In this document: piece by piece, positions 36,301-44,016 of the stretch | Position numbering within the stretch: the stretch's first letter is position 1 | Layout of the letters: each line of letters starts with the position of its first letter | Assembly: GCA_017654855.1 (NCBI GenBank) | Contig: CM030336.1 | Location: 3,968,001 to 4,032,000 of the forward strand | Length of the DNA: 64,000 bases | Reading direction: 5' to 3' | Source: Podospora anserina | Lineage: Eukaryota | Made by a program: the position numbers and the translations under genes | The notes under the pieces: generated by a model | What the model was told of the DNA's origin: nothing | Databases searched by the model: none | What the model saw: only the letters and a program-made list of their open reading frames with translations

Positions 36301-37942
36301 CCGGGCTTGCAAATCGATAAATCGAACGAGCAAACCAACAGGATCGGCGCTATAAAACCGTGACAGCGCCATCCTATCCACCGGCAGGCCAGCCCCACCG
36401 TTTGAACCTTTTCATTTGGAGGAAGAAAGAGGCGCGCAGAGGCACAGCTGATAGCGTTGGCTCGAAGAGTGGAAGGCTATCCTACTTATCAGCCTTTTGG
36501 AAGATGTTGGACGGCAGAAGACATGATGCCGAGATGCCGAGTGCAAGCGGCACAAAGCAAAAGAATGCGCAACGGTTTCTCTGGCGAAACCCCACAGGCG
36601 GGAAGCAAGCCACATGTCGCCGATGGGCTCAAGCCTCTCCTTTGACGCACGTCCGCGGTTAGGAAGTGGTATCGCTGACCAATTGTGCCTCTTCTATCCC
36701 CCATGTTCCAAGACACGACAAGGTCAAATCCTGTCAGGAAGTGCAAGTGTCTTCTTTACCTTACTCTTCGAACAAGTCGTTTTCCCTCGTGGGCTTCTGG
36801 AGGTTTGTGTTCCTTCTAGAAAGTAATGACGGCATCACGTACACCACAGCAAGCATAATACTGTGTGTGCGACTAGCGTGATGTTCACCGCTGCAGGGGC
36901 ACACTTGCTGTCATCGATATGCAGCAAGCGAAAGAAACCCACTGCGGCATTCAAACTGACCCTGTCGCCCGGGCGTGGTGACCAGGTGGCTCCCGGCGAA
37001 AATCACACGGGGCGTTGTGTATGTACTTCGGTCCGCTCAATTACTGTGTCTGTGGTATCTCTTCAAGACTCGAGTCGTTGCTTGTATTATTATAAAGAGA
37101 AGAAATAAGCAGAGAAGAAATAAGCAGACAAGAGAAAGAGAAGGAGAGAGAGAAAGAGGAATGAGGAGAGTCGGTCTTGTCAAGTCTTGGCCTCTCCAGC
37201 CAAGTGCTTGGGAATACCATTTTTAGTGCCTCGTTTGCTGGTGTGTTGCTCGCGTGTCCCGTAACCTTAGTACCTTTGGGTGTGTGTGTGGGTGCGTACT
37301 TTGTACCGCCTAGCTTTGCTTCGCATGCATTCCCAAGTGAACCCACCCGTCCTTCTTTTAAACAAGGGCCACCGCCGTCATACTTTACCAAGGGAGGCCC
37401 CCCCCCTAGTCACAATCCGTCACACACTTAACCTCACTTGCTTCCCGTCCCATTCTTCCCCATTTTGCGATCTCGAGGTGTTGATCCTTTTCCCAAGTAC
37501 CACACACACTCAACGACAACCGACCGCAGGAAAGACGTGTGTTGGTGTGGCGTTCGAGCTGCTTTTCCCTCGTGGCTTTTTTTGGGCCCTTTTTCTCTTT
37601 TCCCTAAACGGCCTTTTTTGGGGGTTGCTCGACAAGACGGAAAAACCGACGAAACGAACAGGACGGACGACCGAATCCAGTAATTCCTAGAAATTAATAA
37701 TCAGCATCAACAAAGAATAAAAACGGTCACAACCTATTCGACAACGACGTCAACCACGAGCACCTCACCCAACCTACCGGTTCAGGCCAATAGTGTAAAA
37801 AGAGTTAAAGAAAGCAAGCACGAAGAGAAATGCAGATGCAGCGACGATAGCCGAACCAACTCCAACAAATCACCTCTTCCCCTTTCCTCCTTCTTCATCC
37901 TAGGAAAGGGCCGGTTTGCCTCCCCGCCGGGTGGTGCGTGTG

Positions 37943-37944
<2 letters not shown>

Positions 37945-37999
<55 letters not shown>

Positions 38000-38072
38000 G
38001 GTGTCTCTCACCTCAACCTCGACCTCAACCTCAACCTCACCTCAACCTCAACCTCAACCTCAACCTCAACCT
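37945..38072. repeat. (GT)n followed by (CCTCAA)n just upstream of the AUR1 ATG
   Basis: (GT)n at about 37945-37999 and imperfect CCTCAA hexamers at 38011-38072. Confidence 0.9.
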
Positions 38073-38123
38073 ACCTAGCGACGAACCTATTTTAGACGAT
38101 TCCGGCGCATCACCATCGCAACC

Positions 38124-39674
38124 ATGCCAGACTTCTCCCCCGTCCTCCCATCAACAACCTCGGCACCCCCCTCCCCGCCACATTCCCTCTCCGCCAAAAC
38201 CATCACCACCTCCCCAAACCCCCTATTACCGCTCTACAACCTCGCCGCCAACATCCCCATCCCCGCCAAATTCAAAAAAGCCAAACCCTCTCTTCGGTTA
38301 CAGCGGGTAAAATCCAAAGACGAAGCCGCCTCTCACGATGTAACCAAACTGCAAACATCCTTCGCCATCCTTCCCTCTCTCAAACAGCTCCAAACCCGCA
38401 AATGGACCCTCTGGGACCTCCAGCACGTGGTGACGTTTGGGTGTTTGGCCTTTTGTCTGCTCATCACACCATCAGCCCCGTTTCTCAAGAGCGCCGCGAT
38501 GGGGTTGCTAGCAGTTCTGCTGGCCATGCCAGCGACGAGACAGTTTTTCCTACCGTCGTTGCCGATTTGGGTGTATTTGTTTTATTTCTTTGCCAGCAGG
38601 TATGTTAGCGACCGTCATCCGAGAGGATCTTTTCTTTTTTTTTTCTTCTTCGTTGTCTGATGCTGATGATGATGATGAAAAAGGTTCATCGCCCCTGAAT
38701 ACCGCCCCCACATCTGGGTCAAGGTCCTTCCCGCGCTAGAAAACGTCCTCTACGGCGCCAACCTGAGCAACATCCTCTCGGCACACACCTACACCATCTT
38801 GGACATCATCGCCTGGATCCCCTACGGCCTCGGCCACTTTGCGCTCCCGTTGGTGACAACGGTGATGCTGTTTTTGTTTGCCGCCCCTGGGACAACGCCC
38901 GTCTGGGCGAGGGCGTTTGGGTACATGAGCATCCTCGGCGTGACGATCCAGATCCTCTTTCCTTGCACGCCTCCCTGGTACGAGGGTCTGCACGGCCTCG
39001 AGCCGGCGCATTACGGCATGGAGGGCAGCCCGGCTGGGTTGAAGAGGATCGATGAGCTGTTTGGCGTGGACATGTACACGACGAGCTTCACGACCGCCCC
39101 GGTGCCGTTTGGCGCGTTTCCTTCCCTGCACGGAGGCGATGCCGTGCTGGAGATGCTGTTTTTGCAGTACTGCTTCCCGAGGTTCAGGGCTTTTTTCGTG
39201 GGGTATGTGGTTTGGATTGCGTGGAGCACCATGTATCTGAACCACCACTACGCGATCGACCTTGTCGGAGGAGGGGTGATTGCCGCGGTCACGTATTACA
39301 TTGCGAGAACGAAGTGGCTTCCGCGCCCGCAGCTGGACAAGACGACGAGGTGGGAGTATGAGTATGTCGAGTTTGGCGACAGGCCGAGGGTGGCGCTCGA
39401 CGAGGAGTATGGCGGGATGGGGTTGGGACTGCTTCAGCGACGGGGGAGCGACGAATGGACTCTTGGGAGCTCGTCGAGCTTTGACTCGATGAGCAGGGGG
39501 GACACCCTCTGCGGGAGCAGCAGCTCTTCGCCGAATATCCTCAGCCCGACGACGCCGAATGATGACCACCATGGGGGGGACCTGTGGAGCAAAGTCCGGA
39601 CGGCGAGCCCGAGGGCGGTGGGGTTGACTGGGGTTGTGGTTGAGGAGGAGCAGAGGGAGGTGTATGTGAGGTGA
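38124..39674 (+). CDS. AUR1: Inositol phosphorylceramide synthase (aureobasidin A resistance protein), ~488 aa
   Basis: Exons 38124-38599 and 38684-39674 (AAG acceptor). Motifs RPHIWVKVLPALENVLYGANLS, PCTPPWYE, GSPAGLKRID, PFGAFPSLH and TMYLNHHYAIDL. Confidence 0.95.
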
Positions 39675-41716
39675 TCTCTTGAGAACCTAATCGACACATC
39701 CATCCTTTTCTCGGCACTTCTTCGACTCGGTTCCGGTTGCTTTTTTTCGATCGCCTTTTTTTTTATACAACACGCTACTACTACTACTACTATCGTTATT
39801 ATCTGTCGGGGCCAATTCATCAGCATTTTATTGGTTTGGGGTTGGGGGCAAACAAATGGCATTGGCAGGGCATTTCGCAAGCAGTGTGTGTGTGTGTGTG
39901 TGCGTGTGTGTGGTTATTTGGTATATACCCCATATCGTTCGCTCGCTTCATTTATATATATGTGTGTGTACTGGAAAGGGGGGAAGTCAGTCTGGATAGA
40001 CAGTCGTTTCTGTTTATTGGAGAAAGAACAAATCAGACTTTTGGATGGATAGAAGAGCGAGGGAGGAGTGAGGAGGGGGGAGGAGGATATATCCCATATA
40101 ATGAGAGGTTGTCGAAGAGAAAAGGAAGGGGGGAAATATGCGATCTTTTGGTCTTTTTAATGATAATGGCTTTTTTTATTTTCTTTTTTTTAAATTGGTA
40201 GGGGGAAGGGAAAGGGTGCGGTGCATATAATGGATCGGGAGGGAGGGGGTTGCATACCTAGTTGGCGAAGGGAGAGAGAAGAGATGGGTGATGATACCTG
40301 CGATTTGGATTTTGTCTTCAGAGCGAAGGGGATACTGGGAGGAAGGAAGGGTTTGCGATATCTAGGAGAAGGAGGAGGAGGAGGTGATGATGATGATGAT
40401 GGTGTTGGTGGTGGTGGTGGTTTTGTATCATATAACGAATATCTCAAAGGAATTTAAATCAAGTCAAACAATTGATTAGAGGAGGGATGGGTGTGTGATG
40501 TTGGAAGAGAGGCTCTTTCCCCTCCACCACCGGGACGCCTTTGGAGGGTTTAACCACTCTGGCCGGCCGGGTTCGGGTAGGTAGGCGGCGGCGTGGAAAA
40601 AGGGGGTTTCGGTTTCAGCCTCACAGCCTTGTGTCGTTCGTTTTTTTTTCTTTTTTTTCTTCTTTTCTCTTTCTCCCAAGATTGTCACGAGTTGGGTGGG
40701 TGTGTCAGATTCGCTTAATCGGCCGGTCCCAGAACGCCACCACTCCGAGGAGTCAGATCCCCCAATCTGTACTTCTTTCCATCATGGGACACAGCGAGGG
40801 GAAAGGGGGGGGTTATAAAAGCATGGGAGGTAGGGGTTCGAAGCGGGAACGGAGATTATCTTGTGTGTCAGGTAGACAGACAGACAGGTAGATGCTGTGA
40901 GACGGGAGGTAGGTAGGTAGAAAGATGCAACCCTTCGGAGAATGCAACATCAAAGATAGTAAAAACCAAAAAACTCAGAAAAAAGGTGATACCGAACAGA
41001 AAACGGGAGATTCTTCTTATGATATATACATGGCAGTCGAAGAGAGAGAGAGAGGGAGAGAAATGTTTTCAGCTCGTGGGGTCAAAGTCACGATGAATAA
41101 GGAAAATCGGCCAAATATCTGGCCTAGTTCGGATTTTGTTGTCAAAAGCGAATGGTGTGTGTGTGGTGGTTGGCACCGGGCTGAGGGAAACGGCCGCCAA
41201 TGCCGTCAACCATCTCTTTAGATATCTTGGATAAATCGTTGGAGAAAAAAAAAAGACGAGTACATTAATCTACAATTCACATTGTCTGCATTCCCATATC
41301 TGTCTAAAACCGACTGACTGACTATCTGGGCTCTGTGCCCATTCCCCGAGTCTTACATACAACTGACTGACATATACCTCTCCCAATCAACCCACAAATT
41401 TACACCCATCTCACATTACATGCAATGCAAAGAAGAAGAAAGAAAAAAAAGTATGCATATCAAAAAAAGACAATAAACAAACATCCATCCATCCAGACCC
41501 ATGTATGGAAAAGCACGAAAAAAGGTATCTCAACGCCCCACCCACCAACCCGCCGAACCCTTTATGCCCTGACAAAAAGAAATACTTTTGATGCCTGATG
41601 CGAAAAAGAAAACCGAAAACAGAAATTAGCGCGCTCTTGTGTGGTTCACTCGCGATGTAAAGACCCGAGACCAGATACTGGGCAACTTCCCAGCTGTGCA
41701 AGACACATGTCAGCCA

Positions 41717-42268
41717 TTAGAACCGCACCTTCGACTTGCTCTTGAGTTTATTCTTCTTCCTATCAGCCTTCTTCTCCTTCTTGTGCTTCTTCTTGAGCAA
41801 AGAATCATCACGATTCTTGTCCTTGGCAAAGAGAACCTTGGCTGTGCTATCCTTCACGCCAGAGTCATATTTCTTGAGAATACTCTTCATTGGCGACGAA
41901 AGAACTTGCGAGGCAGCACCAACAGACAGTATTCGCGTAGACATGCTCTTCGAGGGCGATGAAGGGATAGTCGAAAGAGGGATACTCGAGGAGACTTCGT
42001 CCGGGGGCTCCTGCTTGATCATGTTTTTCAAAGGTGAGGGGGGTGGGGGCATAGACATGCTGCGGGCGCGGCCCGGGTAAGGGGTCGACTTGCCGGGAAC
42101 ATGCACCCGGGTGAGCGACGTAGAATTGCTAGCAGGACTGCTGCTCGGAACCGTGTATGTGGGCAATGTGAATGCAGAGGGCGGCAAAGAAGCCTCGCGC
42201 TTCTTGCGTTCCGACATGGACTGGTAATCGTCGGACTTGACCACGGCTCGCGGAGGTGAAGAGCCCAC
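41717..42268 (-). CDS. Candidate in-frame C-terminal extension (183 aa) of the RPA34-like gene beyond a single TAG
   Basis: Begins at the base immediately after the TAG at 42271-42269 in the same frame. It is stop-free for 183 codons, Ser/Pro-rich, and ends KKKHKKEKKADRKKNKLKSKSKVRF*. Confidence 0.6.
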   Translation of the reverse strand: MGSSPPRAVVKSDDYQSMSERKKREASLPPSAFTLPTYTVPSSSPASNSTSLTRVHVPGKSTPYPGRARSMSMPPPPSPLKNMIKQEPPDEVSSSIPLSTIPSSPSKSMSTRILSVGAASQVLSSPMKSILKKYDSGVKDSTAKVLFAKDKNRDDSLLKKKHKKEKKADRKKNKLKSKSKVRF

Positions 42269-44016
42269 CTAGGCGCTCTTTCCGGCGGGAACAGGAGGCG
42301 GAATCGGCGTCACCTTACTTGCAGTCTTCTTAGCCTTGTTGTCCTTACCATCAGACTTTGTGGCAGAGGAGGCGACGGGGGTAGCAGCCACGTTGTGCCC
42401 GGGGATGGGGGGAGGAGCAATAGGGGTCTCCTTGATGGGCTTAACAACGGGGGCACTGACTGCTGGGGTGCTGGCACCAACACGAGACTTCCTCGCCTTC
42501 TTGCTGGGCGTGGCAGCTGTCTCCTCTCCACCGAGCTTGCGCTTCTTAGCGGCCGCCTTGCTGGTGGCAGCAGCGGGGGCAGCGGGGGCAGCGGGGGCGG
42601 CATCGCCCATCTCGACGTCTTCGTGCTCGGACTCGTCACCCATGACGGTGAGACCGTTGTTGGTGGCGCCGAACGGTGTGTAGCGAACCTTGAGCCCCTT
42701 AGGCTGGGGTCTAGGCGGCACGGGCGGGGCAGGCACAACGGTCTCCTGGCCGATGTGAGTCTTGCGCTTGATGTGGAGGAACTGCCCGATGGGCTGGTCG
42801 GCTAGAAACCGTCAGCAAACCCTCTGCTCACCAAGAGAAAGAAAGCTTCACTCACCACTCTCATACTTCTTGCCATCCTTGCCGGGAATCAGGATCTTAA
42901 CCGAGTGGCTCAGCTGCTCGAGTTCACCGCCGTAATCCACGCCCTCGTGGGTAAAGAGTGGCTGGCCAGAGATGAGCTTGTCCGTAGAGATCTTGTACTT
43001 CCTGATGACGTCGATGCCAATAGACTTGGGGGTGGTGAAGCACCAAAGCTGCTTGCCCTCGGCCTTTGCATTCGCAAGCATCTTGGCAACGCTGGCAGCA
43101 TCGAGATCGGGGTCCACTTTCCGCAGATCGAAGCGTTGCTGAATGAGCTCAGCAGGGCGACTAGTCACTTGTTAGCAAGGTTCCCTCATCAAGCACAGGA
43201 TGATTCTCACGATGACTTGACGGCTGCTGCGTTTTGGGCCTCCGGCTCAGGCTCCGACTCGGACTCAGATTCAGACTCGCCGACGGTCTCCTTGCTCTTC
43301 GCTTTGCTTTTCGCCTTGTCCTTCGAAGCAGCTGGAGACTTGGCTGTCGACGACTTGGCAACTGGAGCAGGTTTGGCTTTGGGAACAGGCTTCTCAGCTT
43401 CGCTCTCGCTCTCACTCTCACTCTCTGACTCGCTCTCCGACCCGCTCTCCGACTCGCTCTCCGACTCGGCCTCTTTGGCTTTCTCATTGACCTTGGCGCC
43501 GTTGACCTTGGCGCCGGCGGCAGGAGCATCCTCATCACTCGACTCCTCCGACTCACTGGACTCGGACTCGGACTCGGAATCGGAAGCAGCAGGAGCGGCC
43601 GCCTTCTTAGTGCTCTTGGCCGGAGCGTCCTTCATCTCGACATCGCCATCGTCGCTGTCGCTGTCGCTCTCGCTTTCGGAGTCGCTCTCACTGGAGCTCG
43701 AATCTGAGGCTTCGACATCCTTCTTGGTCTTGGTCTCGGTCTCGGAAGCAGGCTTCGTGCCGTTGGTGGTAGGCTTAGCAGCCTCCTTCTCTTTCTTCAA
43801 GTTCAGCTTATCGGCCCAGTCGTCATTGTTGTCGTCGGCCTCATCGTCGGTAGAAGTGGAGGTGCTGTCGGTGTCACTGTCGCTCTGACTCTCGCTCTCG
43901 GACTCTTCCTTCTTCACAGGCTTGGGCAGCGCCTTCTGGCTCAAGGCATTACGGAGGCCAGCAGCTTTGGCGATATGCTGGGACAAGGTAGCAGAGGGCG
44001 CTTTGGGCCCCGCCAT
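42269..44016 (-). CDS. RPA34: RNA polymerase I subunit A34.5 (Rpa34)-like nucleolar protein, ~547 aa to the first stop
   Basis: Exons 44016-43211, 43160-42856 and 42801-42269. Ser/Glu/Asp- and Lys/Ala-rich N-terminus followed by KQLWCFTTPKSI, ILIPGKDGKKYE and RPQPKGLKVRYTPFG, resembling the RPA34.5 domain. Family assignment is by eye. Confidence 0.75.

Follow-up and report, generated by a model that had tools for sequence, protein, structure and literature searches.

The window analyzed here is a stretch of 64,000 nucleotides (nt) of the Podospora anserina genome (GenBank assembly GCA_017654855.1, contig CM030336.1, positions 3,968,001 to 4,032,000), and all coordinates given below count from its first letter. 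On its minus strand lies a three-exon gene (44016-42269) that encodes a protein of 547 amino acids and that is identified by its Pfam matches as the gene of RPA34 (A34.5), a subunit of RNA polymerase I (Pol I). A first-pass annotation of the window, made from the letters alone, had assigned the gene to RPA34 and had noticed that its stop codon, a TAG at 42271-42269, is followed in the same frame by 183 open codons. The TAG and the open codons were both borne out by the sequence, and the assignment agrees with matches to the Pfam family RNA_polI_A34 (PF08208) in exons 2 and 3 (Table 1). With tryptophan (Trp, W) at the position of the stop, the product has 731 amino acids. As set out below, comparison with related fungi supports translation of the frame behind the TAG as a continuation of RPA34, and adenosine-to-inosine (A-to-I) editing of the stop codon is the probable means by which it would be reached.

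Table 1. Features of the RPA34 locus in the window (X1, X3, and X7, probable RNA runs; X19, DNA run)
Feature	Position	Strand	Remarks
RPA34 coding sequence	44016-43211 + 43160-42856 + 42801-42269	-	547 amino acids
RPA34 exon 1	43211..44016	-	ATG 44016-44014; 268 codons; acidic, Ser-rich N-terminal region
Intron 1	43161..43210	-	50 nt, GTGAGA..CTAAC..TAG; joint 43160/43211 in X1, X3, X7, none in X19
RPA34 exon 2	42856..43160	-	Pfam RNA_polI_A34 (PF08208), E 2.4e-13, 51.1 bits, profile 2-72
Intron 2	42802..42855	-	54 nt, GTGAGT..CTGAC..TAG; joint 42801/42856 in X1, X3, X7, none in X19
RPA34 exon 3, up to canonical stop	42272..42801	-	PF08208, E 7.5e-17, 62.5 bits, profile 76-204 of 205
Alternative in-frame intron	42314..42460	-	147 nt (49 codons), GTCAGT...GTAAG; joint 42311/42459 (cut +2)
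Hairpin AAGAGC-G-CC [UAGGU] GG-GCUCUU	42259..42280	-	stop in loop; minimum free energy (MFE) folds
Canonical stop, TAG	42269..42271	-	proposed edited adenosine, 42270 (UAG to UGG, Trp)
In-frame extension	41720..42268	-	183 codons; predicted disordered; rich in Ser, Pro, Lys; Lys-rich end
ATG of Met18 of the extension	42215..42217	-	start of a separately annotated 166-amino-acid hypothetical protein in sister species
Stop of extended frame, TAA	41717..41719	-	from sequence
Transcribed stretch past the extension	41265..41716	-	likely 3' untranslated region (UTR); RNA contigs, whose ends are not transcript ends

Both Pfam matches lie above the gathering score of PF08208 (31.7 bits) and together take in nearly the whole profile, a trait in which the protein resembles yeast Rpa34. 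Because the match in exon 3 reaches profile position 204 of 205, the family-defined RPA34 protein is complete before the stop codon, where it ends in ...KVTPIPPPVPAGKSA. PF08208 is also present in 11 of 11 longer homologs, with which the alignment is collinear up to a KVTPxxPPxVPGxKxx end, and the C-terminal motif KxTP[IV]xPPxxP is kept in relatives. Unlike yeast Rpa34 and the PF08208 model, the product of the window gene has an N-terminal region of 268 amino acids, encoded by exon 1, in which a Pfam search gave no match, and is followed by the extension behind the stop, likewise without a Pfam match. Exon 1 holds long SE/SD repeats, and an N terminus of the same type is seen in related Sordariales proteins.

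On the minus strand the surroundings of the stop codon read GGA AAG AGC GCC TAG GTG GGC TCT TCA, and the extension ends in ...KKKHKKEKKADRKKNKLKSKSKVRF. The other two frames within the same 549 nt hold 4 and 8 stop codons; since, in addition, the encoded protein is conserved in other genera, the openness of the extension goes beyond chance. Its content of G and C is highest at the third codon position (GC3, 0.66; GC1, 0.46; GC2, 0.50).

To compare the locus with sequencing runs, none of which is on record as RNA, 15 runs were judged transcriptome-like (0.71-0.89 of sampled words) and 6 genome-like (1.00 of sampled words, about 36-37 million letters). Three probable RNA runs of unspecified developmental stage, from three studies (X1, X3, and X7), and one DNA run (X19) were compared with the window. 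These data are contigs, from which rare variants are dropped and in which strand, transcript ends, and expression level are not readable. Both introns are confirmed, because their joints occur in all three probable RNA runs and not in the DNA run. In the same three runs, RNA contigs continue without a splice across the TAG and all of the extension and reach 41345 (X1), 41291 (X7), and 41265 (X3); in X3, RPA34 through the extension forms a single contig of 2,775 nt. The frames of RPA34 and of the extension lie on continuous transcribed sequence, which, being known from contigs, cannot be proved to be a single transcript. All four runs cover the TAG, and none has another letter there, which removes the concern, raised in the first pass, that the stop might be an assembly error. 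At 43497 (T for C on the plus strand) and 43663 (C for G), all three RNA runs depart from the window, with which X19 agrees; these look like strain differences, since neither is of the A-to-I type on the mRNA strand.

The frame behind the stop codon in related fungi

A scan of metagenomes with an RPA34 alignment yielded 12 fungal loci, each of which was read in the RPA34 frame; an earlier scan with an alignment of the extension had given 589 pattern matches and no relatives. In 10 of the 12 loci a TAG stands at the homologous place, directly after KxTP[VI]xPPxxP, and the same frame then stays open for 122-184 codons, so that the look at relatives that the first-pass annotation had recommended came out in favor of a maintained frame. 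The remaining loci are L003, which is cut before the stop, and L012, the most distant one, which has a TGA, no extension, and a further stop three codons later. With duplicates (L001 = L002, L010 ~ L011) and the close pair L005 and L007 (synonymous divergence, dS, of about 0.05) merged, the loci and the window represent about six deep lineages. The nearest named proteins of L001 and L005-L011 belong to Chaetomiaceae (52-60% identity), and L004, L006, and L008 have about 43% identity to any named Sordariales protein.

Every extension-bearing locus has TAG as its first stop; the second is TAA, TGA, or TAG. The linker between the TAG and a conserved (W/Y)QSMSE motif measures 51, 72, 123, 171, or 162 nt (17-57 codons) and has thus gone through at least four length changes, all of them multiples of three and none bringing in an in-frame stop. 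In the linkers of L005, L007, L009, and L010 (the first 41-57 codons after the TAG), repeated G-W-Q-S / V-A-E-S-K units are visible, and linker growth there looks like tandem in-frame duplication.

The third codon position is the richest in G and C in frame 0 of every extension (GC3, 0.65-0.80), as it is in the RPA34 exon. The ratio of nonsynonymous to synonymous substitution (dN/dS) is 0.09-0.33 in RPA34 exon 3 and 0.25-0.66 in the extension after the Met (dS up to 1.1), from which we conclude that the extension is under purifying selection. Extensions of the Podospora type and of the Chaetomiaceae type match each other in a profile-profile comparison (probability, 85%; E value, 5.9e-6), and the matching block begins five residues upstream of the Met. 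On this comparative evidence, translation of the frame behind the TAG as the continuation of RPA34 is well supported. The C terminus of L012 has no significant homology to the Podospora or Chaetomiaceae extension profiles. TPKSILKKP and a Lys-rich end occur in the main frame of this locus and are reminiscent of the KSILKK motif and the tail of the Podospora extension, a likeness that is not statistically supported; likenesses of motifs judged by eye were not counted as evidence.

In public annotation, the frame appears as a separate hypothetical protein of 146-173 amino acids, starting at Met18, in at least seven species (P. comata, P. pseudoanserina, P. pseudopauciseta, P. bellae-mahoneyi, Cercophora samala, Triangularia setosa, and T. 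verruculosa). A cluster at 90% identity holds the post-stop frame together with proteins of four Podospora species (161-166 amino acids, locus tags ending in 509325), and the homolog of C. samala is 73% identical. Among 1.84 billion representatives, an exhaustive search with HMMER matched four proteins, all of them short. A further rendering is found in Parachaetomium inaequale, where a gene model of 768 amino acids (P0019) joins RPA34 to a homolog of the extension and leaves out the stretch with the stop. Its junction aligns not at the stop position but about 6 codons past it, and, judged by this alignment, looks like a gene predictor stepping over the stop. P0006, a relative on a short contig, keeps GSxPPRAVV upstream and has a two-codon in-frame gap and an Ile in place of Met18; it is weak evidence, as its frame breaks later. 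P0005, a 57-amino-acid copy of the C terminus of the extension from Logan, was set aside as uninformative, because all of its differences from the window look like C-to-T changes. These substitutions (L>F, S>F, T>I, A>V, R>C, H>Y, and R>W) are as expected of a converted or heavily C-to-T-mutated read set.

The UAG as a candidate site of A-to-I editing

Stop-loss editing of UAG to UGG is established in Sordariomycetes, including Sordariales and Chaetomium globosum (PMC11156358, PMC13123824, and PMC6794485), and editing is documented in Sordariales other than P. anserina (PMC13123824 and PMC11156358). The motif described for Fusarium graminearum consists of C or U at -2, U at -1 (strong), A or G at +1, G at +2, and A or G at +3 and +4 (PMC9600606). 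With its context C-U-A-G-G-U-G, the stop codon in the window agrees with this motif at five of six positions, as the first-pass annotation had in essence proposed, and the eight distinct contexts of the related loci agree with it at five or all six. Editing would also explain why the first stop is invariably TAG, since UAG is the only stop codon that is turned into a sense codon by a single edit at an A that follows a U.

The stop codon had moreover been pictured in a 7-nt hairpin loop. The inverted repeat AAGAGC/GCTCTT (42280-42275 and 42264-42259) with the stop in its loop is real and is present in the MFE fold at three sizes of the folded segment (RNAfold), but in these folds two C-G pairs close a loop of 5 nt, UAGGU, of which the A is the second nucleotide. 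In 8 of 8 independent sequences the A of the UAG falls within a predicted hairpin loop, and the stems of three loci are strongly stable (z scores of -2.4 to -5.0).

We propose that the UAG of RPA34 is a conserved recoding site and that editing makes a longer form of RPA34, a reading to which we give a probability of roughly 0.55. The default product would be the 547-amino-acid RPA34. During sexual development, adenosine 42270 would be deaminated to inosine, as in Sordariomycetes, by the tRNA deaminase Tad2/Tad3 together with stage-specific cofactors, and the UAG would be read as UGG (Trp). Translation would then go on for 183 codons and give an RPA34 of 731 amino acids whose disordered tail is rich in Ser, Pro, and Lys. 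RPA34 probably carries a conserved stop-loss editing site. What the data establish is the stop, the frame behind it, and the conservation and coding signature of that frame; we infer editing as the bypass mechanism, its timing, and the role of the tail.

Evidence against editing and other explanations

Of the switch between two forms that the first-pass annotation had drawn, the longer form reached by bypass of the UAG is backed by the comparative data, but no edited base was seen in the three RNA runs. This is one of several observations that weigh against editing at this site. At 42270 the contigs of all three probable RNA runs, in which rare variants are lost, have the A of the genome, and X1, X3, and X7 thus show no majority editing. 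A fused RPA34-extension protein from Podospora was not found in a collection of 5.8 billion clusters (2,338 candidates scored, none passed). Together with the HMMER search, in which all matches were short, this leaves the record without an assembled transcript in which TGG is the majority. Among the matches listed in the literature search there was no report of a P. anserina editome, and one preprint infers editing from the expression of ADAT genes only. RPA34 is unnamed in the main texts listed in a search of the editing literature, the supplementary editing tables of which may already list an RPA34 ortholog; a search that combined stop-loss editing with RNA polymerase I met one unrelated paper, and a literature search for Pa_5_9325, 9320, and 9330 gave no match.

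The structural and comparative data also have their weak points. The hairpin in the window is no more stable than shuffled sequences (z = -0.53, +0.21, and -0.64; also -1.26 and +0.12), and UA sites of the same loci fall into a hairpin loop at a base rate of 64% at ±20 nt and of 46% at ±30 nt, against which the placement of 8 of 8 in a loop has a p value between about 0.03 and 0.002, in which relatedness is not yet taken into account. RNAalifold, run on nine sequences anchored at the TAG, found no common pairs, as the stems of different lineages do not stand in register, and therefore no covariation is claimed. Taken together, the predicted hairpin is consistent with editing and is not proof of it; its support is modest. 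In the linker between the TAG and the Met, dN/dS is 0.45-1.02 over few sites and gives no clear sign of amino-acid constraint. No significant similarity links the extensions of L004, L006, and L008 to the other extensions, with which these three have in common only position, frame, TAG, and coding signature. Finally, 10 of 11 sequences from the two families with the best sampling retain the Met, and the nucleotides CAG TCC ATG TCG are identical between these families, as a real start region could be.

This last finding would suit an independent small gene, as annotated in the seven named species, whose 166-amino-acid protein would begin at Met18, be made from a promoter inside the 3' part of RPA34 or from the shared mRNA, and have a function unrelated to RPA34; such a gene would also need no edited RNA. 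The first-pass annotation had held that there is no room for a separate promoter. This argument is void, because a promoter could sit within the RPA34 coding region, and a separate gene is indeed annotated in at least seven species. What speaks against an independent gene is that its frame has stayed locked to that of RPA34 through the length changes of the linker and that TAG is constant as the first stop and the second stop varies. Furthermore, the similarity between families begins upstream of the Met, and P0006 has Ile in its place. The first Met of the post-stop frame is residue 123 in L004, 57 in L006, and 129 in L008, so late that an ATG-started protein of that length is impossible in these three loci. 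The RNA contigs are unbroken between the two frames, although contigs do not prove a single transcript, and the ATG has a T at -3, which is a poor context for initiation in fungi. We consider an independent gene unlikely.

A conserved in-frame extension without edited reads would likewise be predicted by programmed readthrough, in which a near-cognate tRNA would decode the UAG at a low constitutive rate and leave the RNA unchanged, in agreement with the unedited contigs. Readthrough does not need TAG, however, and yet TAG is found in every lineage, as fungal editing with its U at -1 requires. Directly behind the stop, 9 of 10 loci have G and the tenth has A, hence all have a purine, which at this position favors efficient termination. 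The known leaky stop contexts UGA-CUA and UAG-CARYYA are absent, and the stop lies inside a hairpin loop rather than upstream of a stimulating structure. These features make readthrough distinctly unlikely. That the extension is not translated at all, being the decaying remnant of a longer ancestral C terminus or a long 3' UTR that is open by chance, would fit a tail that is predicted to be disordered and has no known domain, as well as the linker with its dN/dS near 1. It does not fit a frame that is open in about six deep lineages in which the other frames hold 2-8 stops, nor the coding signature in GC3, dN/dS values of 0.25-0.66 at saturating dS, and motifs kept across families, and it appears improbable.

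It is also imaginable that alternative splicing removes the stop, with CCTAG/G as the 3' splice site. A donor, GTCAGT at 42460, is in use, being joined to 42314 in two of the three RNA runs; from it to 42269, an intron would measure 192 nt and be in frame, and the P. inaequale model P0019 skips the stop-holding piece. In none of the three probable RNA runs does a joint end at 42269, though, 0 of 8 other loci have a consensus-like donor within 400 nt upstream of the TAG, and the P. inaequale junction lies past the stop position. Bypass by splicing was therefore rejected as a general explanation, and we regard it as very improbable. The 45-nt in-frame intron (GTGACG) that the first pass had put forward as a weak alternative is weak indeed: in addition to the missing joint, its donor is poor and it has no branch site. 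As for the alternative intron of 147 nt that the donor at 42460 does serve, spliced and retained contigs both occur, at similar contig depth, in X1 and X7, and its joint was found neither in X3 nor in the DNA run X19. This intron takes VSAPVV...KKTASK out of the disordered C-terminal part of RPA34 and leaves the TAG in place.

Beyond the RPA34 locus, several long open frames on the plus strand (37271-40891) suggest a multi-exon gene convergent with RPA34, the 3' end of which may overlap the zone in which the RNA contigs end (41123-41345).

The tail and the meaning of a recoded RPA34

The proposed editing of RPA34 has its closest counterparts in WC-1 of Sordaria macrospora, where stop-loss editing adds an extension of 131 amino acids (PMC6794485), and in DBF2, which undergoes stop-loss editing in F. 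graminearum and seven other Sordariomycetes (PMC13123824). As in these cases, the UAG of RPA34 has a U at -1 and a G at +1 and lies in a predicted hairpin loop, the TAG is conserved across related species and followed by a long, in-frame, disordered C-terminal extension, and the host lineage, the Sordariales, has this editing system. Unlike WC-1 and DBF2, RPA34 is an editing candidate arrived at by comparison, and its gene codes for a Pol I subunit; its extension (122-184 codons) furthermore has motifs that are conserved between families and is called a separate gene in the databases. In PUK1 of F. graminearum, a premature stop codon is corrected by editing (PMC4817773). RPA34 is similar in that its UAG lies within a frame conserved on both sides and would be replaced by Trp after the proposed editing, but differs in that the part upstream of the stop would be a complete functional protein by itself. 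Since the RPA34 Pfam profile ends before the stop, stop-loss with two products is indicated here rather than the repair of a pseudogene-like frame.

AlphaFold2 models the extension (mean predicted local distance difference test score, 56; predicted template modeling score, 0.13) with one short helix at residues 20-26. There was no match in Pfam or the ESM Atlas, and a phmmer search of solved structures (PDB) with E values up to 1 was also without a match. The first-pass annotation had emphasized the Lys-rich end, with yeast Rpa34 and its Lys-rich tail as the model. The Lys-rich end is present in the window extension, but it is limited to the Podospora lineage (tails of the Chaetomiaceae type end in K(I/L)SW(S/T)GDTKRGxGS(Y/H)), and the link to the yeast tail is weak, because the canonical protein already contains the Lys-rich part of the Pfam A34 model, up to position 204 of 205. 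In the study of DBF2, published in 2026, extensions gained by stop-loss are proposed to act as destabilizing disordered tails that lower protein dosage (PMC13123824). By analogy, a destabilizing, dosage-lowering tail would be one option for RPA34; the motifs conserved between families suggest a more specific role. Possible consequences are an altered stability or dosage of RPA34 in fruiting bodies or an altered nucleolar behavior of the protein there.

For Fusarium and Neurospora, stop-loss editing events have been listed by the hundreds. According to a 2024 review, none of them had been functionally characterized (PMC11156358); the characterization of DBF2 followed in 2026 (PMC13123824). The RPA34 site is conspicuous by comparison alone: because the TAG is invariant across deep lineages while the second stop drifts, because the extension is long, has conserved motifs, and is under purifying selection, and because it would be added to a core subunit of Pol I, RPA34 is a strong candidate for a functional rather than a neutral edit. 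Podospora is a genetic model, and hence the RPA34 site can be tested there. Where RNA data are lacking, functional stop-loss sites could be sought by the signature seen here, in which the TAG does not vary, the second stop drifts, and the linker stays locked to the frame.

In sum, we favor, by a modest degree of belief, the view that the small gene annotated on its own behind RPA34 in Podospora and related fungi is the extension described here. A single recoded gene has probably been rendered wrongly in two ways, as the 509325 gene with its orthologs and as the fused Parachaetomium model. More tentatively, and at slightly less than even odds, RPA34 may be subject to an ancient, editing-dependent isoform switch common to several families of the Sordariales. 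Cells of the fruiting body would exchange part of their A34.5 for a form with a regulatory tail of 120-185 residues, by which the synthesis of ribosomal RNA or the organization of the nucleolus would be tied to meiosis and ascospore formation. The downstream "orphan genes" would then not be genes, and, if this is true, the annotation of many genomes in which they have been mis-called beside RPA34 would be corrected.

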